Shown here: positions 1 through 35,747 of the stretch, piece by piece | How positions within the stretch are numbered: the stretch's first letter is position 1 | Layout of the letters: the number at the start of each line of letters is the position of its first letter | Origin: Bacteroidota bacterium | GTDB lineage: Bacteria; Bacteroidota; Bacteroidia; Cytophagales; Spirosomataceae | Assembly (NCBI GenBank): GCA_041158445.1 | Contig: JBEBBJ010000002.1 | Span: 6,672 to 70,671 of the forward strand | Direction: 5' to 3' | Length of the DNA: 64,000 nt | Translations under genes and position numbers: made by a program | Notes under the pieces: model-generated | What the model was told of the DNA's origin: nothing | The model's database searches: none | The model's input: the letters and a program-made list of their open reading frames with translations, nothing else

Positions 1-3000
1 GATGGCCCCATTTGCAGCTGTATTAGTCGCATCAGCAGGAGAAGCAATAGCAGACGTTAATAAGTTTGTCCAAGTCGTATTATCATTTGATCCTTGCACC
101 ATTAAGCTGCTGGCTGTGTTGGCGAAAATTTGGGTAGAACTTACTTTTTGAATGTACCAGGCGTCTAATTTTACTGGTTTGAAAAAGTTAACTTTGTAGA
201 TGGCTTTCCCAATTTGTGACTGAGCGGTGCTCGTACTGAACGTAATCGATGAAGGGTCTGTGGCTAAATTATCCGTTAGTAAAGTAGAGTTAAACACATT
301 TGTAGTCGTAGCTAAATCAGAGCTTATTAAAGCGAAATTTGATTTATCTTTTGTATTCCAATCCGCTATTTTAAAAAAGCAAGACGGAGACTCTGTTAAG
401 TCTAAAATTCCATCATTATCATCATCGATATCATCAATATCAACAACTCCATCAGTATCCGAATCTATACATTTATTACGTGCAGATTGTAATGCTAAAA
501 AATAGTATGACGAAGGATAATTCGTAATAGCAGAAACTAAATCAGAGGTCTCCACTAAACTGGATAAACCATTTACACCATAAGTTCCGGCCACCGTAGT
601 TACATTGGAGGATACCGCACCTGATTCATAAGCATCATTACAGCCATCGTTGTCAGAATCAGAATCTAGTTGATCTGGAGTGCCGTCTAAATCCGTATCG
701 CGCTCCGTACAATACGCATCGTCTCGATACATACCGATCTCTCGAATTTGGTAGTTCGGTGCCGCTGCTCCAGTCGTTATTCCTGAATAGGCAACTTCTA
801 ATACCATTCGCTTAACCCCTACATAGGTTTTGCTGAATGCATATTTGTCAAACAGCTCATTTCCTGCGCCAGTTGCTCCATTCAAAAGTGGATTAATGGA
901 TTGCTGCGCTAATAATTGATTCGCTTGATTGTATAATTTGATGTTGGCATTCTTAATACCATCACCCACGACCCCATTATCATTCGCAATAAAGAATCCA
1001 TCTGCAATCACAGGGAAATTCAAATTGATATCAATAACAATTGGATTTGCTTGGTTTGTCCAGTTAAAGTTTCCCGTAACCGATTTGGCAATATTTCCAT
1101 CCGTCATATCACTCAAAGGTGTTGCAGTGGTCCCTATCACCGTAAAGTTTTGAGCCGTTACCGACTTAAAATACGTAGGCCCTATGTAGAACGTTCCTGG
1201 AGGAACGCAGAAATTCCCCTCATCGATATCCGTCACACCATCATTATCGTCATCGATATCAATGATATCCGGAACTAAGTCTCCATCTGTATCTAGACAA
1301 GCTTTGATATAAGCTAATTTTGCATAACTGTAAGAATACGTTCCTGAGTAGATTCCAGAATCTGTTCCTGTTTCTAAGGTATTAAGGAAGCCATTTGCCC
1401 CAAAGTTTCCCGTTAAAGGAACTGTGAAATTATACAGCGTAATAATGGATTCTGAAGCGTCATTACAACCGTCATTATCGGAATCCAAATCTTGGTGATT
1501 TAAAATCCCGTCTCCATCATCATCTACTTCACAGGCTAATGTAGGGTACTCTGACGCATTATAAGTGGGAGCCGCAAAACTTATATCCTTTAATTGACCT
1601 GCAGAAACTAGTGTTCCTGCGGTACTATAAACTCGGTAATATTTATATTTATCTGCATTCGTGGATACCGTAAACTTCGTGATATTACCTGTTTCTGACG
1701 TTGAATTAAGTGATTTAGTGGCTAAATCTAACCAGGTAATTCCATCATTTGAACCACGTAAAGTAGCTGAAGATGATGCTCCAAAAATGGTACTAGCAGA
1801 ATTATAATTGAAAGTCAATTCACTTAGCTTCACGCTTCTTGGAAACTCAACTGTAACCACATTTTTATTAACCGCGGACTGGGCATTTAGGAAATCTGTA
1901 TATAAAATCGTCGTCCCTAATGGGTTATCGATCATATTTGTTAATGGTCGAGAAACAGAATTAAGCGTAAGATCAGACGTTATTTTAAGAATTCCTGTGC
2001 GATCCGTGGATCCTAAGCCCATTCCAGCTGCCGTATAAAAACAAGCAGGTGATTCTATGGCATCTAACACACCATCATTATCATCATCGATATCAACGAT
2101 ATCCGTGACACTATCTTGATCAAAATCAGCACAAGCCGCATAGTTTTTTGAGATAGCAAATGGGTAATTATACGTACTATTATAAACACCACTTTCATTG
2201 CTAGTTTCAAGCGAATTAGCAAATCCATTATTCCCAAAAGTAATAGCTGAAGATCCGACCGTAGCCACAACAGCATTTGATAAAGTAGAGGTTAATGTCC
2301 CCGAAAGTATGGTAGAACCGGCTAAGTTTACAGCTGTTCCTGTAGTCAATACAGACGAGGTAATTCCTGATTCCAAGGCATCTGCACAACCATCTCCATC
2401 GGAATCTAAATCCAAATGATTAGCGACGCCGTCTGCATCTGTATCGCAGGTTAAATTAGTTGTACTACTATATGCATTGTAAAATGCCGAAGCTATTTTA
2501 TTCTGATTTGCCGTATACCAAGGTGCTCCCTGGGTAATCGTTCCATCTACAAACCAGGCTACAAACTGATTTTTTGAACTAGTCCCTGGAATTTGTTTCA
2601 TCCCAGCTAGAGCCGAGCCGGCTACCGATGGAGAATAAAATAAGATGTCTGATGGGTCTACATTTAGAATCGGATAGTAATTATTTCCATCTAATGCATT
2701 GGTAGTGAATACAGAGGAATAACTATTGGCATTATTTAATGTAAAGGTTTGGTCAACGGCTGGATGGGACGAAGATAAATCATATTTAGTACCAAAAACA
2801 TTGTTTAATACATTCATTAAACCATTTTGATTTGCTACGACACAGCAGTTGTCCGACTGTATTATAAACGCCTTACTTGTTTTATTTTGAATGGCTGTTT
2901 GTAGGGCTGCCCAGTGATTCGCATGAATGGTATTGAAAGCTGCTCCACCAAAAACAACCATATCATACCCATCATAAAATCCAGCAGGAACAGTGGCTGT

Positions 3001-6000
3001 TTCTATTATATTTGATTGTACAATGGTCGCTCCAGGAGCCTTATTATTATCAAATTCAGCGAACAAGCTAGACCGCATGGTGGAGAAATTTTCATTCGAT
3101 CCTGCAAATAGAATTTTGCCTGGACGCATATCACACTCTGCTCTATCTAAAATCCCATCATTATCATCATCTAAATCTACTACGTCATTCACTCCATCTT
3201 GATCTGAATCTAGACAAGCATTTATCAAAGCAGTTAAGGCATAGGAATTATAATAACTGTTGTAATTAATCGTACCCGCAGTCAGTCCTTCTTTTGTATC
3301 AATTAATCCATTGTTATTTGCATCATTTGTTGGACTTATAAATGAAAATTGAAAATTAGACGTCTGATTTGTAGTTGCTCCCGCTTCCAAAGCATCACTA
3401 CAACCATCCGCATCTGAATCTAGATCTTGAAAATTGAAAAAACCATCTCCATCCGTATCTCCATTACAATTAATCTTTGGATTTACACTTGGTATATAAG
3501 TATCAGGTGTTTCAAAATAAACTTCATTTGCATATCCAGTTGTTCCTACTCCACCACCTGAAACCCAATAAATACGGTAAAATAGGTACTTGCCCGTATT
3601 TTGTGTTACTGTAAACGTATTCGCATTAGTTACACCTATCACCCCAGGAACTGAGGTCACTGCAGAATATCCATTTCCTAAAATAGTCCATGAACTATTA
3701 TCGTTAGATCCTTCTAATCGTAAAACGGTATTTGCATTGAAATGTGTGTTCGCATTAATGTAACCTAAGTAAATGGTTTTTAATTCTACAGCCATAGGCA
3801 TTTTAAATGCATATACCGTTTTGGCAGGCGTAGTAGAAGCGACAAAACTAACCGCCCAACTTGCTGAAGTCGTGCCATTATCACCATCTACTAATTCTTT
3901 CGGACTTTGGTAATAATTACTCATAACCAAATCAGTAGAAACTTGAATATCTGATCGCAATCCTACAAGCCAATCTCGAGAAGAATAAAAACAAGATGGT
4001 GATTCTACTGCATCTAAGGTTCCATCATTATCATCATCTATATCTTGCGGATCAGCAATTCCATCATTATCAAAATCAGAACAAACAGATAGATTTTTTG
4101 CAAGAGCAAAGGGAGTATATTTTGAGAAGTAGCGAATCGAACCACTTTCTGCGGAAGTTTCTACACCATTAGCTAAACCATTCGAACCATAAGGACCAGC
4201 TGCTACCGCATCATTCAATGTGGTCGTAGAAGTGACCGCACCATTGAATCCATTTTTAACCGCTCCTGAATTTAAGGTGCCAGAAACACCTGCCTCCTTT
4301 GCATCCGGACAACCATCTCCATCAGAATCTAAATCGAGATGATTAAAAATTCCATCATTATCGGTATCCATACTACCAGAACAGTACACATCTTTTACTT
4401 CAATTAAAAAAATGTCATCTGCTATAAAATCGGCGGAGTTGGGTGCTCCAGAAGTTTCAAATAACTTAATTAATAAAGACGTATTCGACCCTGTATTAAT
4501 GATGGATTGTTTTGAAACCCAATTAGCTGTAGTTGCAAAATTACCTGTTAAGGCACCTCCATTTATACTATAGCTAACTGTAGCTGGATTCCCATGCTTT
4601 ATTGAAAACCCTAGTTTGTAATTAGTATTAGGTTTTACCGTTATAGTTTGACTCCAAAATTCAGTAAAAGGAGAAGAACAGTCGGCGTTGATTTGTAATG
4701 CATTACCCTCTGATAAAGAGCCCACACTGGAAGCCCAGCCAAAAGGAGCAACAATGTAAGATCCACAAGTACCAATAGAACCTACGTTAACATAGGTTGT
4801 ATTAAATCCAGTATCACCTTGCTCAAAATCACCATTTACAACTAGATTAAATTGTTTTATTACGGGATCATTAAATATTTGTCGATCGTTTGTCAATGCA
4901 GCACAACCATAGCCTTCGGTAATGTCTAAAATACCGTCATTATCATCATCTAAATCTGTTAAATCTGATACCCCATCACCATCAGTGTCTATACCTGTGC
5001 AGGTATTTAAATTTGCAGATAAAGCATAACTAGAATAAGAGGAAATATAATTAATGATCCCACTTTCTGCTGAGGTCTCTAAGGCATCTGCCAATCCATT
5101 TGCTCCATAAGAGTTAACAAGACCAGCCATTGCTTCAGTTGTATTAATGGTAGAAGTTACAACGCCACCATTAGCACCATTTTGTACTGAACCATTACGT
5201 AAGGTTCCCGAAACGCTCGCTTCTTTAGCATCTGTACAGCCATCTCCATCGGAGTCTAAGTCTAAATGATTAGGGACACCATCATTATCGGTATCACAAA
5301 TCTCATAGATTGGATCGGCAGAGATTGAAACACTTGCATTCTGCATGGGCGATACGATTCCCGTATTTTGGAATTGCAAATCATGGCTAGTCGCAGTAGC
5401 TGTAAAGGTAATAAAACGAGTTTCCCAACCGCAACCCAATGTTGGCGTATATTGATCTATTACAGTAGTACCTAATTTAACTGTAATTCTACCTAAAGCT
5501 GGCGTCGCAGCAAATTTCGCATAGTAGGCTTTTAAAATATAAGTCTTTCCAATAGTTAAACCTGAAATAGTCGTTTTGAAAGCTTCTTGCGTATTAGAAT
5601 AAAAGTTCACCCAGGAAGTATGGCCGTTAGGTGCAGCTGGAGCCGTACCAGAACAGCCTCCGATCCATCCATTATAAATGGAGGATGCGGTAGTGGCAAT
5701 ATCTGGAGAGGAATTCGTAATGGTCCATCCAGTAGGAACTTTGAATTGAGTTACCGTGGCAGTTGTATTCGTTGCAGGAAGGAGTATACTTGATTTACAA
5801 TATTCGTCAGTATCCAGTATCCCGTCATTATCATCATCTAAGTCGGACGCATCCAGTACTCCATCCAAATCAGCATCTAATGAAGTACAAATATTTACAC
5901 TAGCTAATTTCGCATAGCTATTGTAATAGGAAGTATAATTAATTAAACCACTTTCAGCCGTCGTTTCTAAACTATTCAATAATCCATTCGCACCTACCGT

Positions 6001-9556: not shown

Positions 9557-10924
9557 ATGAAACAATTCATTGCCCTCTTTCTTTTCATCCCCTTCTTCGC
9601 TCAGGCGCAGTTTAAAATCACGGTTTCCCGTTCTAAGAACCCCATTTACTTCCGTGGAACCCTGTTTGATGAAAAGAATTTCCTGGCAAAAGACACCCTT
9701 CGAGGCACCGTTTTATCTTCCAAAACCCCTATCAAAGGCGGCATTTATTACCTACAATTCGCCCCCTCAAAAGAGCGCATTTACTTCAATATCGAGAACA
9801 ACGACAAATTCGCTTTAACCTTTTCTGGTCCCGCTTTTCTGGCTTCTGCTCATTCATCAGACCCGAAGAATGAGGTATTTTTGAACTACCAAAGACTCGA
9901 AAAATCGTTCTCTGTCATTGACTCGCTATATGCTGTAGAAATTGCACGTGGTCGCAAATTCAAATTCGCAGATAAAGCGGCCTTTTTCCAGTCTAAAACA
10001 GCCGCTTTAGTTGCCTTCCGTAAAAAAGCGCTCGTTTCGCTCCCTCCTTTTAGTGCGGTCGCGCTCTATTTCAAATCGTTAAATACACTCGATGAATCCA
10101 TTCCTAGCCGGACGGATTACGCGGCTCGTGCCCGCTTTTTTGCGAAGATTCCATTCAACGATGGCAAATTACTATTTACCCCCGTTTTCCGCCCTTTGTT
10201 AGTTGAATACCTATCTTATTATCCTTTGCAAGCTGATTCTATCCGCGTAGGAGTGGAAAAAGTTATGTCCAAAATCGACTGCGGAGCTAAGTCCTATCCC
10301 TTCGTTTTCGACTATTTCAGCTCCGTGATGAAGAACCGAAACATCGTGGGAAACACCGAGGGCTATGCTTGGTTTTTGACAAAATATGGCGTTGGGAATG
10401 GGTGCGGCGCGTTTACCGCCGCTCAGAAAAAGGCCTTTAAAGAAGAAGCTGAAAAATTGGGAGCCTTGAAGACGAATACGTTGGCGGAAAATATCGTGTT
10501 GAAAGACACCGCCGGCAACATCCAGGACCTACAGAAATTTGCCGCACAGAACGACTACACATTGTTGATGTTCTACGCGCCTACCTGTGATCATTGCCAA
10601 AAAGAGGTCCCCGAAATCGACTCCACCACCGCCGTCATCGAGCGCATTAAGAACCTAAAAATCGGCCGTTTCGCCGTTTGCAACGAACCTGGCGTATCCC
10701 GCGCTATTTGGCTAGACTTCATCAAGAAATACCACGTAAACACGAACGCTCTTCACGTTGACCTCCCAGCAAACTCCCCTATCCGCGGTACCTATGACGC
10801 CTTCGCGAATCCCACCTTTTATCTTTTAAACCACAAAGGTGAAATCGTCGCAAAAAAAATCAGTCCATCTACCCTGCGCAAATATTTTGCTGGACTACAG
10901 CCTGCACTACCCAATGCGCCCTAG
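9557..10924 (+). CDS. Secreted thioredoxin-fold (TlpA-like) protein
   Basis: Signal peptide MKQFIALFLFIPFFAQAQ. CxxC motif in APTCDHCQKEVP within a C-terminal thioredoxin-like region. I chose ATG 9557 because a TAnnTTTG box at 9544-9551 lies inside the longer track ORF. Confidence 0.7.
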   Translation: MKQFIALFLFIPFFAQAQFKITVSRSKNPIYFRGTLFDEKNFLAKDTLRGTVLSSKTPIKGGIYYLQFAPSKERIYFNIENNDKFALTFSGPAFLASAHSSDPKNEVFLNYQRLEKSFSVIDSLYAVEIARGRKFKFADKAAFFQSKTAALVAFRKKALVSLPPFSAVALYFKSLNTLDESIPSRTDYAARARFFAKIPFNDGKLLFTPVFRPLLVEYLSYYPLQADSIRVGVEKVMSKIDCGAKSYPFVFDYFSSVMKNRNIVGNTEGYAWFLTKYGVGNGCGAFTAAQKKAFKEEAEKLGALKTNTLAENIVLKDTAGNIQDLQKFAAQNDYTLLMFYAPTCDHCQKEVPEIDSTTAVIERIKNLKIGRFAVCNEPGVSRAIWLDFIKKYHVNTNALHVDLPANSPIRGTYDAFANPTFYLLNHKGEIVAKKISPSTLRKYFAGLQPALPNAP

Positions 10925-10985
10925 TGGGCTTAAATGACCCTTTTGTGTGAAATTTCGCGAGACGTGTAGATAGCATTTTCAGGTA

Positions 10986-11002
10986 TTGACACAATTTGTC
11001 AA
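10986..11002. promoter_or_regulatory. Palindromic element TTGACA-N5-TGTCAA (copy 2)
   Basis: gcattttcaggtATTGACAcaattTGTCAATacgct. Confidence 0.5.
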
Positions 11003-11082
11003 TACGCTCATTTCGATTATCAATAACCTGATAGGTTTGTGTTGAAAATTGTTAGAGGTTTGCAAAAATAACCACTAATAAT

Positions 11083-11331
11083 ATGCCCGAAATTTGCCGA
11101 TTCTACGGCCTAACTATTTACATGTTCTTCAACGATCATCTACCTCCGCACTTCAAAGTGAAATTTGCAGAATTCGAAGCCAATATTAAAATTCTAGACG
11201 GCTCAATACTTACAGGAAATTTACCAAAGAATAAACTCAAGCTTGTACAAGCTTGGGCAGAAATTCATACATTTGAATTAATCACCATGTGGGATAGCAA
11301 AAGTTTTCACAGTATTAAACCACTTCAATAA
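11083..11331 (+). CDS. DUF4160-family small protein
   Basis: 82 aa, MPEICRFYGLTIYMFFNDHLPPHFKVKF.., which I recognise as the DUF4160 N-terminal pattern. Confidence 0.6.
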   Translation: MPEICRFYGLTIYMFFNDHLPPHFKVKFAEFEANIKILDGSILTGNLPKNKLKLVQAWAEIHTFELITMWDSKSFHSIKPLQ

Positions 11332-11601
11332 TGATACGCATAGATATATGTTGACTGCCTATTCAATACGGGAGAATTAAAGCGAATTGAAATACTCCCA
11401 CTCCTATTAAATCACCAGCATTTAAATGGAATTGATCAATTAAAAGATTATTCTGTATTTGAAAAAGCGGTGATAGGAGATATGGGTGAATTAAAATGGG
11501 AAAAAATCATTTTATCCCCTAAAGATGATTCCGGACAGCGTTGGGATTATGATATCTCACCTGAGTTTGCTTATGAAATAGGCAACATTTCAAGTTTATA
11601 A
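11331..11601 (+). pseudogene. DUF2442-like gene with apparent frameshift near the 5' end
   Basis: ATG at 11331 overlaps the upstream stop (TAATG) and reads MIRIDIC then TGA at 11352. The +1 frame opens after TAG 11341 and continues ..VDCLFNTGELKRIEILPLL..WDYDISPEFAYEIGNISSL to TAA at 11599-11601. The switch point lies in an ATATAT run at 11344-11349. Confidence 0.5.
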
Positions 11602-11635
11602 ATTCTTTCGAAGCCCTAAAGTCCATTTTCGCAAA

Positions 11636-11652
11636 TTGACAGAAAGTGTCAA
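11636..11652. promoter_or_regulatory. Palindromic element TTGACA-N5-TGTCAA (copy 3, flank inverted relative to copy 2)
   Basis: aATTGACAgaaagTGTCAATacctgaaaag. The reverse complement of the right flank matches the left flank of copy 2 (cttttcaggtattgaca). Confidence 0.5.
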
Positions 11653-11728
11653 TACCTGAAAAGCCCTCTCAGTACCTCGACGTTTATTTCACACATTATT
11701 GCCCCCAGGCGACCTAATCGACATATTT

Positions 11729-11804
11729 GACTAAATCGCAGAGCGATGACTAAACGACAAAGTCGTGACTAAGGCGCAAAGCGCCGACTAAGCCACGAAG
11801 TGGC
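11729..11804. repeat. Tandem array of four 19-nt units: constant GACTAA linker + variable 5-bp stem / 3-nt loop mini-hairpin
   Basis: Unit 1: gactaa ATCGC aga GCGAT. Unit 2: gactaa ACGAC aaa GTCGT. Unit 3: gactaa GGCGC aaa GCGCC. Unit 4: gactaa GCCAC gaa GTGGC. The period is exactly 19 (11729, 11748, 11767, 11786). Degenerate units flank both sides. Confidence 0.9.
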
Positions 11805-11811
11805 GAGTCAA

Positions 11812-13302
11812 CTAAGTCCGCAGGACGCCCTCCGCCAGCGCCCGATCATTCGAGAGGCGGGGAACTTTGTTTTGGCCCCCTAATTTACCCTGGGACTTCA
11901 TGTACGAAATAAATGCGCCTGATGGTAAAGAGGTAAGGACTAAAGGTTGCAAGATGGACCCGGTGATTAGGTCGCGGTAATAGATGTTTTGGGCGCACAT
12001 CGAGGCATCGACAGCTTGTTGAAAAGCTTCCAATGAAGCAGGAGGTGACGAAAATTCCACTAACCACTCATGATAAGGCAAACCAGACGCGGGAGCTACT
12101 TGTGGTGCCACTGTAAATTCCACCACACGAGCTTCAGGACAGGCTGCAAGTCCAGCAGCTAAAGCCTTTTCGACTTCCTCTGCAATCACATGCTCGCCAA
12201 AAGCCGAAATAAAGTGCTTAATTCGCCCCGACACCACAATGCGGTAGGGATTTAAAGAGACAAACTTGACGGTATCGCCGATCGAATACGACCAAAGGCC
12301 TGCATTCGTCGTCAATAAGAGCGCATAATTCACGCCCAAAGAAACCTCTGTGAGGCTTAAGCGGACTGGATTTGCCCCGAAATAGGTATCGGTAGGGACA
12401 AACTCAAAGAAGATCCCGCCGTCTACGTTCAATAATAGCCCTGGTTCGCCCGAAGAGTCTTGAAATGCAATGAACCCTTCCGAAGCCGGATAAGTCTCGA
12501 CTACGTCGATTTCTCGGCCTATCGAGGCCATCAATTTCTCGCGATAAGGTTCAAAGTTCACTCCGCCGGTAACGAAGACCTGGAAATCGGGGAAGAGGTC
12601 GCCTATTTTTTGGCCTGATAATTCTTCCAACCGATCAAAATACATCTGCACCCAGGGAGGAATACCCGAAATCAAACCCATTCGCTTCGAAATCGTTTCC
12701 TGTACAATGGCCTCTAACTTTTGCTCCCAGTCATCGATGCAATTCGTCTTATACGACGGCATTTGGTTGCCGCGCAGATACCCTGGAACATGGTGATTCA
12801 CGATTCCAGACAGGCGGCCAGTAGGTACACCATTAGTCTCTGACATCTCTGGCGAGCCACTTAAAAAGATCAATTTGCGGTCTAAAAACGAGGCATTTCC
12901 GCTGTAATGCACGTAATGCAAAAGCGCATCGCGAGCGGCAGTAATGTGAAAAGGCATGGATTCCGATGAAATCGGGATGTATTTGACGCCGGAGGTCGTG
13001 CCGGAAGTTTTGGCGAAATAGGCTGGCTTGCCTGGCCAAAGAATGTCTTCCTTACCCGCCACCACTTCATCAATATAGGGCTTAATGTCTTCGTATTCAA
13101 AGATGGGCACATTCGACCGGTAGTCGAGGTAGTTCTTGATTTTAGCAAAGGAATGGCCGCGGCCGAAGAGGGTTTTCTCCGCTTTTGCTACCATCTGCTT
13201 CAACCAAAAGTCTTGGCGCTCGAAGGCCTGCTCTTGACTTAAGCGGTACTTTTTAACGACACGGGCCGCTAGAGGTTTGGCAAAAAAGGAACGAATACCC
13301 AT
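11812..13302 (-). CDS. GH3 (auxin-responsive promoter) family acyl-adenylate-forming enzyme
   Basis: 496 aa; ..FAKTSGTTSGVKYIPIS.. adenylation-type motif, with length and overall pattern typical of bacterial GH3-family proteins. Confidence 0.75.
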   Translation of the reverse strand: MGIRSFFAKPLAARVVKKYRLSQEQAFERQDFWLKQMVAKAEKTLFGRGHSFAKIKNYLDYRSNVPIFEYEDIKPYIDEVVAGKEDILWPGKPAYFAKTSGTTSGVKYIPISSESMPFHITAARDALLHYVHYSGNASFLDRKLIFLSGSPEMSETNGVPTGRLSGIVNHHVPGYLRGNQMPSYKTNCIDDWEQKLEAIVQETISKRMGLISGIPPWVQMYFDRLEELSGQKIGDLFPDFQVFVTGGVNFEPYREKLMASIGREIDVVETYPASEGFIAFQDSSGEPGLLLNVDGGIFFEFVPTDTYFGANPVRLSLTEVSLGVNYALLLTTNAGLWSYSIGDTVKFVSLNPYRIVVSGRIKHFISAFGEHVIAEEVEKALAAGLAACPEARVVEFTVAPQVAPASGLPYHEWLVEFSSPPASLEAFQQAVDASMCAQNIYYRDLITGSILQPLVLTSLPSGAFISYMKSQGKLGGQNKVPRLSNDRALAEGVLRT

Positions 13303-15519: not shown

Positions 15520-16611
15520 TTGGCTCGAATTAAGGCATTTCTATTGAATCTAGGCCTATTGGTCGCCCTCTCCTTTGCCACAGGGAGCCTGTCTTCGCTA
15601 TTTTTAGCCGGCCTCGACTGGATTCAGCACCACGGATCCTATTTATACGCCTTACCTATTTTAGGTTTAGTCTTCCAAAGCTTCCCCTTTCCCGCCTACC
15701 TCATCATCCCCGCTACCTGGCTCAGTCATTTAGCTGGAGCATCGGTCGGTCGCGAAGGAACAGCCGTTACGATGGGTCGAGTTTTAGGAGAGAGAATTTC
15801 ATCTTCTACTATTTTTCCAAAAGCCGGCATGGCCGCTGGCTTCGCCTCGGTTTTTGGGACACCACTTGCCGGCGCCTTTTTTGCACTCGAAGTAGGAGAG
15901 GTCGGCAAAATAAATTTCCGTCACCTTCCGGCCTGTCTTTTTGCAGCATTTTCAGCCAATTTTGTCAGTCTCCACGTGTACGGCACAAAACATCTTTCTT
16001 ACCCTGTCCTTTTTTTGCCTTCGTTTTCAGGCGAATTTTATGCGAAATTAGCGCTTATGGGCCTATTTTTAGCCCTAATTGCCTTCCTTTATAAGCGCTC
16101 AGAATCGTTTATAATTTCTGCGTTCGACAAATTACCCGTACAAGGTCCGCTAAAAGGGATTCTCGCGGGCTTGATTTTGTTCGGAGTCCTAAGCATCCCA
16201 GTGTTTCACGAAAGCACCGGACTCGGATCTGAATTTTTGTTGAGACCCTTTACTACTGTCGTACCGGACTTCGCCTTATGGAAATTACTCGCCACGAACC
16301 TAAGTTTAGGCCTCGGTTTTAAAGGGGGAGAAGCAACACCATTATTTTTGATCGGCTCGCATGCCGCTTCCGGATTTGCCTCCTGGATCGGCTTGCCTAT
16401 CGGACTTGCGGCAGCTATCGGATTCGTGAGTTTATATGGAGGTCTTGCCAAAACTCCACTAGCCGCCACCCTTTTAGGAGTGGAACTTTTCGGTCCATCT
16501 GCCTGGTTTTGCTATTTATTTATCACCCTGATCGTCTTATTCGGCTCAGGGAAAAAAGGTATATTCTCGAATCAAACCTGGGCAGCTTATCTGCCAAAAC
16601 CACTTTACTAA
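15520..16611 (+). CDS. ClC-family chloride channel protein
   Basis: 363 aa polytopic membrane protein with ClC selectivity-filter-like motifs GREGTAV and GFASVFGTPLAGAFFALEV. TTG start in the track; the start is uncertain. Confidence 0.7.
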   Translation: MARIKAFLLNLGLLVALSFATGSLSSLFLAGLDWIQHHGSYLYALPILGLVFQSFPFPAYLIIPATWLSHLAGASVGREGTAVTMGRVLGERISSSTIFPKAGMAAGFASVFGTPLAGAFFALEVGEVGKINFRHLPACLFAAFSANFVSLHVYGTKHLSYPVLFLPSFSGEFYAKLALMGLFLALIAFLYKRSESFIISAFDKLPVQGPLKGILAGLILFGVLSIPVFHESTGLGSEFLLRPFTTVVPDFALWKLLATNLSLGLGFKGGEATPLFLIGSHAASGFASWIGLPIGLAAAIGFVSLYGGLAKTPLAATLLGVELFGPSAWFCYLFITLIVLFGSGKKGIFSNQTWAAYLPKPLY

Positions 16612-29800: not shown

Positions 29801-30283
29801 ATGGCTTGGTACGCGATTTACACGAAATCCAGAATGGAGAAGAAAGTCTCCTTGCGCCTTCAGGAGCTAGGCATCGAAGCCTACTGCCCTACTACGAAGC
29901 GCAAGAAGCAATGGTCTGACCGCAAAAAATGGGTTGAAGAAGTTCTCTTCCGCTCCTACGTTTTCGTTAACATCGACCTTGAAAAGCAAAGTGGCCTAGT
30001 CCGCCGAACCTTCGGAGTCGTTAACTTCGTCTACTGGCTCCACAAACCCGCTGTCATCCAAGATGACGAAATCCTGGCCATCAAACAATTCTTATCCGAC
30101 CACCTCGAAGTCGAAACCATCGGCACCACCGCAAAAGTGGGCGACTACATCACCATCGAATCTGGCCCACTAACCGGCCAAACCGCCAAGATCGTCGGGC
30201 TGAAGAATAAGCACGAGGTGAGGCTTAAGATTGAGAGCCTTGGGTTTGAGCTTGTTGCGGCCCTGCGGGACGCAGGAGAGTAG
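29801..30283 (+). CDS. UpxY-family (NusG-like) transcription antiterminator
   Basis: 160 aa; MAWYAIYTKSRMEKKV.. NGN-like N-terminus and a KOW-like C-terminus (GDYITIESGPLTGQTAKIVG). Confidence 0.8.
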   Translation: MAWYAIYTKSRMEKKVSLRLQELGIEAYCPTTKRKKQWSDRKKWVEEVLFRSYVFVNIDLEKQSGLVRRTFGVVNFVYWLHKPAVIQDDEILAIKQFLSDHLEVETIGTTAKVGDYITIESGPLTGQTAKIVGLKNKHEVRLKIESLGFELVAALRDAGE

Positions 30284-30329
30284 AGATAAGAGATTAGAGA
30301 GAGGAGATAAAAGAGTAGAGATTATAGAT
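30281..30329. repeat. Degenerate heptamer array (TAGAGAT-type), 7 units, starting at the UpxY TAG stop
   Basis: tagagat aagagat tagagag aggagat aaaagag tagagat tatagat, read directly from the sequence. Confidence 0.85.
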
Positions 30330-30768: not shown

Positions 30769-30853
30769 TAGATTAGAGAGAGTAGAGATTAGAGAGTAAA
30801 GATAAGAGAGAGAAAACCCATCTATACTCTTTACTCTCTAATCTCTACTCTCT
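30769..30853. repeat. Heptamer array folded into a perfect 26-bp inverted repeat (probable bidirectional terminator)
   Basis: Heptamers tagatta gagagag tagagat tagagag taaagat aagagag run from 30769. Left arm 30777-30802 (agagagtagagattagagagtaaaga) is the exact reverse complement of 30828-30853, with a 25-nt loop. It lies between convergent stop codons at 30764 and 30856. Confidence 0.85.
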
Positions 30854-32922: not shown

Positions 32923-34275
32923 ATGTACTTAAAAATAGTTAGTCTTACCTCCCTCCTTTTCGTTAGCGGAATGCAGGTGAATGCTCAGAGCGCTTCGGCG
33001 ATTCAGGCAAACGCAAATACGGTGCAGTTATCGCTTACGAAGGCGGTGGAAATCGCGTTGCAACATAACCTAAACGTGAAGTCGTACGAGGTGAGTTTGC
33101 GCAATGCACAATTGCAATTTCAGCAGTCTAAGAACAATGCGCTGCCTAATTTAAGTGCGAATATTAATCAGTCGGCGAGTTTTGGCCGTAGTATTAACCC
33201 CTTCACGAACGGTTACGATTCGCGAAATATCAATTACAATAACTTAGGTTTAAACGCGGGAATGCTTCTTTTTAATGGAGGCCAAATCCGTAACACGGTT
33301 CTCCAGAACGATTATAATCTAAAGGCATCGCAAGAAGATTTAGCGTCCATCAAGGAAAACATTTCCCTGCAAGTCGTGCTTTCGTATTTAGCGATTCTGA
33401 ATTCAGAAGATCAATTAAGCATCGCAAAGACGCAAACAGAGATCACGAAATTACAGATTACCCGCACCGAAAAATTAGTTAATGCGGGCTCTTTAGCCCC
33501 ATCCAACCTATTGGATTTGAAGGCGCAATTAGCGAGTGAAGAGTCGAATGTGGTGAATTTCCAGAGCTCTTTGGACCTAAATAAACTGACTTTACTTCAA
33601 TTATTGAATGATTCGAGCATCACGGCGATCGAATTACAGCGCATTCAAGTTCCTGCGCCTAGTTCGAGTGGCTATGATACGGGAATAGAGGATTTATATG
33701 CCAAAGCCCTAGCGATTCAACCCCTCGTAAAGGCGGCTGACTTACGCGTTCAGAGTGCATTAAAAGGCATTTCGGTTGCGAAAGCAGGAACACTACCTAC
33801 CCTATCCTTTAGCGCGAGCATGTCGGCTAACCAGTCAAATGCGTTAACGATGGGCTATTTTGATCAGCTAAATAACACCCAAAACAAGGTGCTTTCTTTA
33901 GGCTTAAACATCCCTATTTTTACGCGATTTGCAGCTAAAACAAGAATTGCTCAAGCAGGTTTACAACGCGAGAACGCTTCCATTGAAGCAGCAAAAGCAC
34001 GCCAAAACTTGCGTCAAAACATCGAGCAAGCTTACGTGAACTTAAATAATGCAGCGATGAAATATGAGGCAGGCCTTTCACAGGTATCTGCTTTAGAAGA
34101 ATCCTTCCGCGCGGCTGAGAGCCGTTTTGGGGCTGGAACCATTGACTTCGTGAGCTATAACTTACAAAAAACGAATTTAGATAAAGCGCGCTTGAGCTTG
34201 ATTCAATCGAAATACGACTTCGTGTTTAGAACGAAGATTTTGGATTTTTATCAGGGGAAAAGCTTAACCTTTTAG
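32923..34275 (+). CDS. TolC-family outer-membrane efflux protein
   Basis: Signal peptide MYLKIVSLTSLLFVSGMQVNAQ. Two-fold repeated coiled-coil/beta pattern typical of TolC (LSLTKAVEIALQHNLNVK..). Confidence 0.8.
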   Translation: MYLKIVSLTSLLFVSGMQVNAQSASAIQANANTVQLSLTKAVEIALQHNLNVKSYEVSLRNAQLQFQQSKNNALPNLSANINQSASFGRSINPFTNGYDSRNINYNNLGLNAGMLLFNGGQIRNTVLQNDYNLKASQEDLASIKENISLQVVLSYLAILNSEDQLSIAKTQTEITKLQITRTEKLVNAGSLAPSNLLDLKAQLASEESNVVNFQSSLDLNKLTLLQLLNDSSITAIELQRIQVPAPSSSGYDTGIEDLYAKALAIQPLVKAADLRVQSALKGISVAKAGTLPTLSFSASMSANQSNALTMGYFDQLNNTQNKVLSLGLNIPIFTRFAAKTRIAQAGLQRENASIEAAKARQNLRQNIEQAYVNLNNAAMKYEAGLSQVSALEESFRAAESRFGAGTIDFVSYNLQKTNLDKARLSLIQSKYDFVFRTKILDFYQGKSLTF

Positions 34276-34349
34276 ATTAGAGATTATAGAGTAGAGAGTA
34301 TAGATAAAATCTGCTAGCGACTGGCGACTGGCGACTATTGACTAAAATT
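34273..34349. repeat. Degenerate heptamer array filling the whole TolC-HlyD intergenic spacer (11 x 7 nt)
   Basis: tagatta gagatta tagagta gagagta tagataa aatctgc tagcgac tggcgac tggcgac tattgac taaaatt. It runs from the TAG stop (34273) exactly to the ATG at 34350. Confidence 0.8.
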
Positions 34350-35747
34350 ATGGCAACAAACAACAACAGTAAGCGGACTTGGATGATCATCGGAGGCGCG
34401 GTGGTATTAATTTTTGGTGGATTATTTCTAGCCAAAAAAATGGAGTGGATCGGCAAGGTCGAGCCTACGGAAGTAGAATTCGCGAAGGCGTCTCGTTCGA
34501 CGATCATTGAAAAGGTTTCAGCGTCTGGAAAGATCCAGCCAGAGGTAGAGGTGAAATTATCACCGGACGTTTCTGGGGAGATTGTTTCCTTGAACGTGGC
34601 GGAAGGCGATTCAGTAGTAGCTGGACAGGAATTATTGAAGATTCGTCCAGATAACTATGTGTCTCTTTTAGCACGTGCGGAAGCTCAAATGAATGCTACG
34701 AAGGCAAACATGGAGCAAAGCAAGGCGGTGTTAGCCCAAAGCGAAGCACGTCTTTCGAAAGCGAAAATCGACTACGATCGTAACGCGAAATTGCACAAGG
34801 ACAAGGTGATTTCTGATGCAGATTTTGACCAATTCGTATCGGCTTATACGGTAGCTAAACAAGATTTAGAGGCGGCAAAAGCAAACGTGAATGCAGCTAA
34901 CTACAACGTGAAATCGTCTCAGGCGACCTTGAAAGAAGCAAAAACGAACTTAACGAAGACGACGATTTATGCTCCCCAAAGCGGTATCATCTCGAAGTTG
35001 AACGTTGAATTAGGTGAGCGTGTGGTAGGTACTTCGCAGATGGCGGGTACGGAAATGTTGCGTATCGCGAACTTGAATAAAATGGAAGTGCGCGTGAATG
35101 TAAACGAAAATGACATCACACGTGTGAGCATCGGTGATACGGTGTTAATTGATGTAGATGCCTTCTCTTCTAGCGAGCGTAAGTTCAAAGGGGTTGTTTA
35201 TGAGATCGCGAGTTCAGCGAATTCAAGTGGAACGGCTTCTGCAGTTTCAAATGATGCGGTGACGGAATTCGAAGTAAAGATTCGTGTTTTGCGTTCTTCT
35301 TATGCAGACTTAATCAAGGGTAAATTATCGTATCCATTAAAGCCGGGAATGACGGCGTCTGTGGAGATTTTGACAAACAGAAAGGACAATACCTTAACGG
35401 TTCCATTATCGTCTGTGACAACGCGTGAAATAGGTGCAGTAGCAGAGGGTGAGAAGAAAGAGGAGGATGGAACGAATTCGACGAATGCGAATGATGCTTT
35501 GGAGGCCAAAAAACGCAAGGAAAACACCAAAGAAGTCGTTTTTGTAATGGAAAAAGGCAAAGCGAAGATGATCCAAGTGAAAACAGGCATCTCAGATTTC
35601 GAAAACATCGAAATTGTATCTGGCTTGAAAGACGGTCAAGAGATCATCGCAGGTCCATACGCGACAGTAGCTAAGAAGTTGAAAGAAGGAGACTTAGTGA
35701 AGAAAAAGGATCCGAAAGCAGCAGAAAAGGCCGCTGACAAGAAATAA
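34350..35747 (+). CDS. Efflux-pump periplasmic adaptor (HlyD/MacA family)
   Basis: N-terminal TM anchor, biotinyl/lipoyl-like hairpin (VSGEIVSLNVAEGDSVVAGQELLKI), long coiled coil and a beta-barrel region. Confidence 0.8.
   Translation: MATNNNSKRTWMIIGGAVVLIFGGLFLAKKMEWIGKVEPTEVEFAKASRSTIIEKVSASGKIQPEVEVKLSPDVSGEIVSLNVAEGDSVVAGQELLKIRPDNYVSLLARAEAQMNATKANMEQSKAVLAQSEARLSKAKIDYDRNAKLHKDKVISDADFDQFVSAYTVAKQDLEAAKANVNAANYNVKSSQATLKEAKTNLTKTTIYAPQSGIISKLNVELGERVVGTSQMAGTEMLRIANLNKMEVRVNVNENDITRVSIGDTVLIDVDAFSSSERKFKGVVYEIASSANSSGTASAVSNDAVTEFEVKIRVLRSSYADLIKGKLSYPLKPGMTASVEILTNRKDNTLTVPLSSVTTREIGAVAEGEKKEEDGTNSTNANDALEAKKRKENTKEVVFVMEKGKAKMIQVKTGISDFENIEIVSGLKDGQEIIAGPYATVAKKLKEGDLVKKKDPKAAEKAADKK

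Follow-up and report, generated by a model that had tools for sequence, protein, structure and literature searches.

Introduction

Tagged repetitive extragenic palindromic (REP) elements carry unpaired terminal tags of the GTAG (GYAG, GYRG, GTRG, GTMG, GTGG) or the CGTC (TGTC, CCTC) kind, and those of the GTAG kind consist of a short palindrome with a 2-3-nt loop and a conserved unpaired tag at one end (PMC3733652). A comparable design was found in a 64,000-nt stretch of DNA from a Bacteroidota bacterium (contig JBEBBJ010000002.1, positions 6,672 to 70,671 of the forward strand; hereafter the window), where an array of small hairpins separated by the hexamer TTAGTC stands at the 3' end of a gene encoding a GH3-family protein. 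In the family to which this array belongs, each unit on the gene strand is a perfect hairpin of 9, 11 or 13 nt followed by the 6-nt tag TTAGTC. These TTAGTC-hairpin arrays are apparently an undescribed, genus-wide, REP-like repeat family of Aquirufa, an abundant freshwater genus.

The original prediction, made from the letters of the window, had held that the array was not a REP sequence. Comparison with the described elements did not support this: in placement, architecture and behaviour the arrays are closest to tagged REPs (PMC3733652). GTAG-1 REPs have a dinucleotide between tag and stem, to be compared with the TTAG-TC-stem order of the Aquirufa units; REPs likewise have subfamilies with alternative complementary stem residues; they are intergenic, lying mostly no more than 20 bp downstream of open reading frames (ORFs) of convergent or unidirectional genes; and they form tandem-amplified clusters, as does the clustered Thauera sp. 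MZ1T family with its 5-bp stem (PMC3733652). Head-head REP dimers resemble the paired Aquirufa arrays in that the tags face both convergent ORFs.

The Aquirufa tag TTAGTC (core AGTC), by contrast, fits neither GTAG, GYAG nor CGTC. The unit bodies of 9-13 nt are shorter than any described, and their stems of 3-5 bp are at or under the shortest described for tagged REPs (5 bp, Thauera). Units stand strictly head-to-tail with the tag as the sole spacer, whereas head-tail REP dimers are absent or rare, and the host belongs to the Bacteroidota, a phylum for which only CGTC repeats have been reported (PMC3733652). Several stem types coexist under one tag within single Aquirufa arrays, unlike in REPs. 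The alternating orientation of bacterial interspersed mosaic elements (BIMEs), with their head-head and tail-tail (HH/TT) dimers, is not seen within arrays; opposite orientation is seen solely between the arrays of a convergent pair. A weak test for a REP-associated tyrosine transposase (RAYT), in which E. coli RayT was compared by tblastn with 467 kb of Aquirufa-clade sequence around the arrays, gave no match better than E = 4.6. On these shared and differing features the arrays are classed, by analogy, as REP/BIME-like in kind and outside the GTAG and CGTC super-families. They take the REP concept to its minimum, with 9-13-nt bodies, a 6-nt tag and purely head-to-tail arrays.

A second point of comparison is the DNA mini-hairpin d(cGNAg). 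Among the 64 possible GCNNNGC DNA loops, GNA alone gives a mini-hairpin, with a Tm of 70-76 C from two G-C pairs; RNA versions are far less stable, and hairpins with a TTC loop are ordinary (PMC13037366). The GNA mini-hairpin requires C-G closure (PMC13037366; PMC3201870) and is a stable single-stranded DNA (ssDNA) motif recognised by primases and N4 polymerase (PMC13037366). Most Aquirufa units, read on the strand that carries GACTAA, have the form C-GNA-G, and ATCGCGAAGCGAT contains GCGAAGC, as in d(GCGNAGC) (PMC13037366; PMC3201870). The known d(cGNAg) hairpins, unlike these units, are single copies in phage and plasmid single-strand origins and in N4 promoters, not chromosomal arrays at stop codons. 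A further difference is that 32% of the 13-nt units are non-GNA, and hairpin formation is here predicted from sequence.

Stop-containing heptamer direct repeats include the cyanobacterial STRR and SDR repeats. Among such heptamers, TAACTGA forms direct repeats in Beggiatoaceae, Cyanobacteria and five Bacteroidetes; these repeats resemble the Aquirufa arrays in being intergenic, in a period of 1 mod 3 with stop codons closing all frames, in lineage restriction and in variation between relatives, and differ in having no hairpin spacers and in their forward orientation, mostly immediately 5' of start codons (PMC4679880). Intrinsic terminators are likewise GC-containing stem-loops right after a gene, and the arrays are sometimes the sole 3' structure; the Aquirufa stems have 3-5 bp, however, and UUAGUC takes the place of the U tract. 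The earlier statement that the array is not a simple terminator agrees with the absence of a terminator-like site at 11700-11830 on either strand, TTAGTC and no U tract following the hairpins. CRISPR loci share the regular alternation of constant sequence with variable segments. Their constant part measures 24-48 nt, their spacers are unique and of similar length, and cas genes usually accompany them. Here the constant part has 6 nt, a small repertoire of 9-13-nt palindromes takes the place of the spacers and many small arrays per genome stand at gene ends, so that exclusion of CRISPR in the original prediction holds. Pfam scans of six neighbouring ORFs gave no Cas family, the remaining window not having been scanned for cas.

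Results

A repeat family of Aquirufa genomes

An exact scan for TTAGTC-N13-TTAGTC-N13-TTAGTC in 185,579 bacterial and archaeal genomes, one per species, returned at least 119 loci. Among the matches listed, at least 42 loci in about 16 genomes were of the hairpin type (41 by an automatic criterion and L218 by inspection; L numbers denote sequences of this comparison), and their hosts were all Aquirufa or freshwater metagenome-assembled genomes (MAGs) labelled Cytophagaceae, Bacteroidota or 'Spirosoma fluviale'. The named hosts are Aquirufa originis, A. esocilacus, A. antheringensis, Aquirufa sp. 2-BAHN-186B and Aquirufa MAGs. Tagged REPs exceed 100 copies per genome; strict arrays here numbered up to at least six per genome among the matches listed, each locus being an 8-kb piece, and the longest array has at least 17 units (L188). 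The other 77 loci among the matches listed were plain tandem repeats from unrelated phyla, in which one of 202 spacers was a hairpin; a relaxed variable-gap scan of viral contigs, which serves as a control, gave no hairpin among 73 spacers of the matches listed. The proposed search for relatives thus showed that the array is not unique to its locus, arrays of this kind being dispersed through genomes of the Aquirufa clade. A full-text literature search with Aquirufa and 'repeat' returned nothing relevant on Aquirufa repeats.

The organism of the window was placed in the Aquirufa clade of the Cytophagales by its GH3 protein, which is 77% identical in amino acids to Aquirufa GH3 proteins; a cyanobacterial origin, to which the heptamer repeats had pointed, was rejected on this ground. 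Its four complete units follow an exact 19-nt period with all arm pairs perfectly complementary, as first read from the sequence, and the 19-nt spacing was also reported by a repeat finder. GACTAA-N13-GACTAA has three matches in the window, all in the array, against 0.38 expected, and none of 100 shuffles gave three. The 64 kb contain five perfect 5-3-5 hairpins with NNAGTC after them, against zero to two in 20 shuffles, and four of the five make up the array. When the plus strand of the array region was folded, four hairpins were obtained (z = -3.35). The same array, without a single change, is present in L002 (JGI) and L003 (Logan), which are independent assemblies, and is therefore no assembly artefact. 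Rfam at the gathering threshold matched only a tRNA in the whole window, and at E <= 1 nothing relevant was found at 10900-11900.

The fifth hairpin-tag match, at 15654-15672 on the plus strand (ACCTA-TTT-TAGGT TTAGTC), lies inside the coding region of a chloride channel and is best taken as a chance match, since its AT-rich stem and TTT loop are unlike the family consensus.

The non-Aquirufa matches (Actinomycetota, Gemmatimonadaceae, Methanosarcina and others) were rejected as ordinary 19-nt tandem repeats unrelated to the family. Two of them are families of their own. The Actinomycetota MAG MFD00905.bin.1.260 (L132, L157, L175, L191, L207) carries TTAGTC-CCGAGGACAGCCG units followed by inverted CTAACGGCTGTCC units, and Gemmatimonadales/Gemmatimonadaceae MAGs (L128, L133, L190, L195, L203, L205, L221) carry TTAGTC-CCCCAATTCGTAG units. 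Both occur at multiple loci and lack hairpin spacers; they may be iteron-like or protein-binding arrays.

Unit structure and covariation

Between AGTC tag cores, 230 of the 267 spacers of 13 nt were perfect 5-3-5 hairpins and 29 more had a single mismatch; random re-pairing of the arms gave a mean of 36 and a maximum of 50. Perfect hairpins also made up 74 of 90 spacers of 9 nt, which have 3-bp stems, and 30 of 41 spacers of 11 nt, which have 4-bp stems (examples are GAC-TTC-GTC, GCC-TNC-GGC and GTCC-TNC-GGAC). Covariation was assessed by exact pattern logic and pair counting instead of a covariance model. In 115 distinct units, 93% of cells were paired, against 65.6% in column-preserving partner shuffles, none of 500 of which scored as high; the covariation score was 0.79 against 0.28, double changes were present at all five stem pairs, and slid registers paired just 21-48%. 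This bears out the proposal of a conserved fold and linker with differing stems. The consensus on the gene strand is RYSRC-TNC-GYSRY, the loop is closed by C-G in 334 of 338 perfect units, and the tag variants AAGTC, GAGTC, CAGTC and CTAGTC leave AGTC as the conserved core.

The stems were not found to be free in sequence, as had been supposed. The 13-nt spacers yielded 25 distinct perfect stems; 19 occur among 159 perfect 13-nt units, and the top six (ATCGC, ACGAC, GCGAC, GTCAC, GCTGC and GGCGC) make up 83% of them. The arms of the window, ATCGC, ACGAC, GGCGC and GCCAC, are four common subfamilies rather than free variation: ATCGC is the commonest stem type in the family and ACGAC the second commonest, GGCGC recurs across the family, and GCCAC was found again in other genomes. 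The hairpin GTCC-TGC-GGAC, which is encoded by the last four codons of the window's GH3 gene, is a common 11-nt type family-wide and also terminates GH3 in L001, L243, L244 and L246.

Placement of arrays at stop codons in the sense of the gene

Placement was scored with stop-to-stop ORFs of at least 120 aa in 41 hairpin-type loci. Arrays overlapped, or began no more than 25 nt past, the stop of an ORF in the sense of the TTAGTC strand in 36 of 80 cases, and none of the 80 ended within 25 nt of an opposite-sense stop. In 20 of the 36 stop-anchored arrays the stop is the tag's own TAG, a codon that REP tags often supply as well (PMC3733652). A requirement for stops does not account for this polarity, since an antisense array next to a gene could likewise provide TAA or TGA. 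In the window the downstream unit provides the GH3 gene with its TAG, inside a degenerate AACTAA tag, and with its last codons, and stops occur in all frames on both strands (TAA of the tags at 11732, 11751 and 11770, and likewise the minus-strand TAG), both as originally described. Donation of stop codons and of the last few codons means that the arrays affect gene annotation.

Convergent ORFs flanked 45 of 81 arrays, and such pairs often have two arrays, each in sense with its own gene (L180, L238). Both orientations were present within 8 kb in 22 of the 24 loci having two or more arrays, which indicates that orientation follows the genes and not the replication strand. The cumulative GC skew of the window declines between 1 and about 20 kb and climbs from there to 64 kb; the turn may mark a replication origin or just a change in the strand on which the genes lie.

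In relatives the GH3 stop is followed, after about 190 nt, by a separate terminator of canonical and bidirectional form. It (AAAAAGCCTGAATAACAGGCTTT) is missing from the window owing to a 46-nt deletion at about 11590, between GH3 and a convergent cassette. The window is otherwise 99-100% identical to JGI contig Ga0451687_0000081; the second difference is a deletion at about 11320-11345, which frameshifts the 96-aa partner gene of a DUF4160 gene.

Turnover of units between strains

Genomes whose flanks are 76-93% identical keep arrays at orthologous positions, with large changes in unit content. Among strains with 94-97% identical GH3 proteins the units after GH3 turn over rapidly, varying in count, type and order: the window has five hairpin units and L001 five of other types; L244 and L246 have four; the five of L242 and L243 show broken stems and mutated tags; and L245 has none (...GCGGT TTAGTC AGATATG..., with a C-terminus GLLAV* against GVLRT*). 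The empty site of L245 retains a single TTAGTC, so that adding n x (hairpin + TTAGTC) to such a site gives a filled one. GTCC, the first unit, and ATCGC, the last, are the stable anchors, the distal ATCGC unit being kept in most relatives. At the degenerate TTAGTT tag of the window relatives have canonical TTAGTC, and the GACTC remnant that follows recurs in L246 in the same arrangement, 'ttagtc GACTC GCCACTTCGTGGC'.

Elsewhere, L232 has 12 units and L222 about one at 91% flank identity, and three-unit blocks were tandemly duplicated in L188, L232 and L151. The original prediction had set the pattern against simple duplication; block duplication does build arrays. In-situ compensatory changes were also recorded, among them ACGAC/GTCGT to GCGAC/GTCGC and GCGGC/GCCGC to ACGGC/GCCGT, in which the outer pair switches between A-T and G-C while loop and neighbours stay the same (L222 vs L200/L232, and L130 vs L238). 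Window ACGAC against L001 ACGGT was also considered as a compensation, and is better read as replacement by a unit of the ACGGC family type. Because the arrays differ between strains with near-identical flanking genes they could be used as strain markers; they are also likely to break short-read assemblies.

Loop composition and the strand under constraint

On the gene strand the loop is TNC in 70 of 74 units of 9 nt (95%), 27 of 30 units of 11 nt (90%) and 158 of 234 units of 13 nt (68%); the excess in short over 5-bp stems is significant (Fisher p = 1e-7, with pseudo-replication not removed). On the GACTAA strand the same units read C-GNA-G, a GNA loop with C-G closure. Among 25 orthologous unit pairs, aligned by hand and biased to arrays in which unit order was kept, divergence was 40% at the middle base of the loop, 8% at the loop ends, 4.4% in the stems and 2.7% in the tags. 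Freedom of the loop middle between a constrained G and a constrained A is as the d(cGNAg) mini-hairpin predicts. As sense RNA, 13-nt units have predicted folding free energies (dG) of -3.3 to -7.1 kcal/mol, and the commonest 9-nt unit, GACUUCGUC, has no fold (dG 0, nearest-neighbour model); it nonetheless keeps pairing and the 95% TNC loop rule. One 9-nt unit is GACGAAGTC.

The C-G closure, the GNA loop, the free middle base and the tighter rule at 3-4 bp all fit d(cGNAg), from which we infer that the structure maintained is probably a hairpin of DNA, formed by the template strand (the complement of the mRNA), and not a strong mRNA hairpin. Hundreds of such tiny hairpins provide clean natural statistics on which positions are constrained, and the match of the constraint pattern to the physical-chemistry rule of d(cGNAg) is a rare genomic hint of a chromosomal role for mini-hairpins.

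Proposed origin and role of the arrays, and alternatives

We give an even chance to the view that the arrays function as REP-like punctuation of gene 3' ends, based on DNA mini-hairpins and remodelled by slippage. Arrays begin at or overlap the stop of the upstream gene, often lending it TAG, and would grow, shrink and reshuffle by unit or block. For insertions and deletions of whole units and blocks, the simplest route proposed is that identical tags mispair by strand slippage or serve in template switching, presumably aided by the hairpins. Pairing would be preserved through purifying selection, through templated correction within a hairpin, or through both. The suggested effect, by analogy with REP/BIME elements, is structural punctuation of gene 3' ends: the array region would be co-transcribed with all frames closed, and could impede polymerases, ribosomes or exonucleases. 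Stop anchoring, at 36 against 0, gives a testable handle on REP-like roles at gene ends and on DNA versus RNA as their carrier.

Several observations weigh against this picture of slippage-remodelled DNA hairpins. The effect on the gene is argued purely by analogy; few of the REPs described so far stand in head-to-tail arrays, and the tag differs from both GTAG and CGTC; the placement counts come from crude ORF calls at loci chosen by the array pattern itself; and a simple scan found a canonical hairpin with a T-run within 300 nt downstream in 8 of 41 stop-anchored arrays. Uncompensated decay in L242, L243, L142/L153 and also L222 against L232 speaks against strong selection at every locus. 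The complementary-strand loops of the window are GCA, GAA, AAA, AAA and AGA, with GNA in two of the five and ANA in the other three, and single mismatches, as a test of the folding strand, stand at 6 G-T to 12 A-C, which is not significant. Finally, placement follows the mRNA sense strand, whereas the loop rule fits the complementary strand, and the two would be reconciled only by inference.

Selection may instead act on the sense-strand RNA, as 3'-untranslated-region strings of stem-loops separated by single-stranded UUAGUC that would protect against 3'-to-5' exonucleases, act as tandem terminators without a U tract or modulate translation termination. Liang, Rudd and Deutscher reportedly found in 2015 that REP elements near stop codons affect translation. 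The strict sense polarity at stops (36 vs 0), the 33 of 41 stop-anchored arrays without a canonical terminator downstream and the predicted folding of the 13-nt units as RNA all agree with such a role; REPs have been thought to be RNA elements (PMC3733652), and the window's hairpin-less GA-rich repeats, likewise stop-anchored and sense (see below), hint at a transcript-level cause. We nevertheless regard an RNA basis as rather unlikely, as the commonest short unit keeps its pairing and TNC loop while predicted to be unfolded, the U-N-C triloop rule fits no known RNA motif while its complement C-GNA-G is a known DNA motif, a barrier function alone would leave the invariant 6-nt linker unexplained, the array has no called terminator-like site, and the sense strand shows no enrichment of G-U wobbles (6 vs 12). 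A different origin of the perfect arms, in the mechanism rather than in selection, would follow if the 15-19-nt units were selfish elements written or inserted at TTAGTC by a dedicated enzyme, such as an HUH/Y1 transposase (RAYT or IS200/IS605 kind) acting on ssDNA hairpins, or by a templated polymerase activity. Such an enzyme would fit the empty and filled sites at the L245 locus, the recurrence of identical unit types at many loci, even in species with GH3 just 77% identical, and the perfection of 86% of units despite orthologous arrays that in some cases decay about as fast as their flanks; the hairpin also resembles the ssDNA motif of primases and N4 polymerase (PMC13037366), and GTAG REPs have been proposed as RAYT substrates (PMC3733652). 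On the other side, E. coli RayT had no tblastn match in the 467 kb around the arrays, itself a weak test, no transposase-like genes were seen between arrays, orientation is set by the gene and not by the replication strand, unlike in IS200/IS605, block duplications require no enzyme, and in-situ compensation together with stems evolving 10-fold slower than the loop middle fits selection or correction. Dedicated writing is judged unlikely.

Further readings, in which a templated or enzymatic activity writes units at TTAGTC by stops, or an ssDNA recombination site inserts cassettes, appear quite improbable. In the former, transcription may set the polarity of new, perfectly self-complementary 15-19-nt units, and these, if writing is true, would be the smallest known actively propagated repeat units. 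In the latter, arrays and palindromic core between convergent genes, with cassettes such as the DUF4160 pair, may form an analogue of the integron attC site. The core also enters the proposal, in our view highly improbable, that the arrays are binding sites, in DNA or RNA, for a lineage-specific protein and that, where genes converge, they are the outer arms of a larger module (array, 66-nt arm, palindromic core with 16-bp arms, arm, array) serving topology, recombination or cassette insertion. The tag is near-invariant (2.7% divergence against 40% at the loop middle), the distance from array to core is fixed at about 66-67 nt with the core always downstream, L180 and L238 have symmetric modules, small inserted gene cassettes in the window and in L234 have a copy of the core on either side, and REP/BIMEs bind gyrase, IHF and Pol I (background in PMC2817692); but no core lies within 200 nt of 51 of the 76 arrays, variable unit number and order with mixed spacing of 15, 17 or 19 nt would be odd for a phased array, and we know of no candidate protein. 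A local accident, in which simple tandem duplication and coincidental palindromes produced the array with no family and no constraint, is scarcely conceivable: the 64-kb window holds a single array, as this would have it, but the idea is refuted by the 42 or more loci in about 16 genomes among the matches listed and by covariation far above the controls, with hairpins at only 1 of 202 in plain repeats sharing the tag.

Neighbouring repeats and features of the window

The arrays can be accompanied by a second dispersed element, composed of a tail of about 65 nt (GTGAAATAAAC.TCGAGGTACTCAGAGGGC) and the palindrome TTTTCAGGTATTGACA-N5-TGTCAATACCTGAAAA, which is repeated at many Aquirufa loci (Table 1). 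For 25 of 76 arrays it is placed downstream, at a distance of 37-142 nt (mode 66-67), and for none upstream; array and core are separable, since the other 51 have no core nearby. The segment 11711-11728, at first taken for a degenerate upstream unit of the array, is the conserved start of this element and not a unit, because the same sequence follows the array in all relatives, even in one without hairpin units. Composite architecture of array and element is seen in L180, L238 and L234, with the full layout of stop, array, arm, core, arm, array and stop between convergent genes in L180 and L238. In the window, the copies at 10944-11007 and 11626-11697 bracket a two-gene DUF4160 cassette (11083-11601; DUF4160 by Pfam), and in L234 two core copies surround another small ORF; the pattern suggests a hotspot for the insertion of small cassettes, or their boundary.

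Table 1. Array units and associated elements; positions refer to the window unless a locus is named, and unit sequences are given on the gene strand with the plus-strand reading in the last column.
Feature	Position	Strand	Basis or remark	Plus-strand sequence
GH3-family gene, array at its 3' end	11812..13302	-	ORF; Pfam GH3 N, M, C domains	
First unit hairpin GTCC-TGC-GGAC, 4-bp stem	11816..11826	-	within last GH3 codons	11805-11826, after the four units: GAGTC AACTAA GTCC GCA GGAC
Degenerate tag TTAGTT with GH3 TAG stop (11812-11814)	11810..11815	-		stop reads CTA
GACTC remnant, between first tag and next hairpin	11805..11809	-	sequence	
Unit GCCAC-TTC-GTGGC (11792-11804) + tag TTAGTC (11786-11791)	11786..11804	-	RNA dG -5.6 kcal/mol predicted	GACTAA GCCAC GAA GTGGC
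Unit GGCGC-TTT-GCGCC (11773-11785) + tag TTAGTC (11767-11772)	11767..11785	-	RNA dG -7.1 kcal/mol predicted	GACTAA GGCGC AAA GCGCC
Unit ACGAC-TTT-GTCGT (11754-11766) + tag TTAGTC (11748-11753)	11748..11766	-		GACTAA ACGAC AAA GTCGT
Distal anchor unit ATCGC-TCT-GCGAT (11735-11747) + terminal tag TTAGTC (11729-11734)	11729..11747	-		GACTAA ATCGC AGA GCGAT
Second dispersed element, after the array	11626..11728	-	arm AAATATGTCG..., tail GTGTGAAATAAACGTCGAGGTACTGAGAGGGC, palindromic core	
Palindromic core of second element, TTTTCAGGTATTGACA-N5-TGTCAA...	11626-11662	-		
Inverted second copy, tail + palindromic core	10944..11007	+	repeat comparison	
Further copies of second element	L180 2040-2140; L238 2370-2450; L234 6800-6880 and 7110-7200			

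Other repeats of the window and its relatives also stand at gene ends. A hairpin-less GA-rich family has units of about 7 nt (AGAGTAG, AGATTAG, AGAGATA), with TAG in each, and forms arrays at 30276-30329, 30769-30816 (plus strand), 30821-30853 (sense on the minus strand) and 34273-34305, each of them in sense with the upstream gene and starting at its stop codon. At 30769-30853 the two arrays come from convergent genes and together make one long inverted repeat. GA-rich repeats adjoin TTAGTC arrays in L153 and L223.

The 3' end of GH3 seems to attract several kinds of repeat. Aquirufa lineages with a 77%-identical GH3 have other repeats right after the GH3 stop: a tandem repeat of about 41 nt in L249 and L267 (about 2976-3230), with the hairpin AGACGCGA-NACTT-CGCGTCT and beginning at TAG, and AGTCCGGAGGGAAATAGTCCGGAG-type elements in L254-L257 and L266. 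At 34317-34345 of the window, (GCGACTG)x3 followed by TTGACTAA lies just 5' of a gene start at about 34338-34351; this heptamer contains AGTC/GACT, has the orientation opposite to that of the stop-anchored arrays, and is related to the CAGTCGT heptamers that were found after GH3 in L254-L257 and L266.

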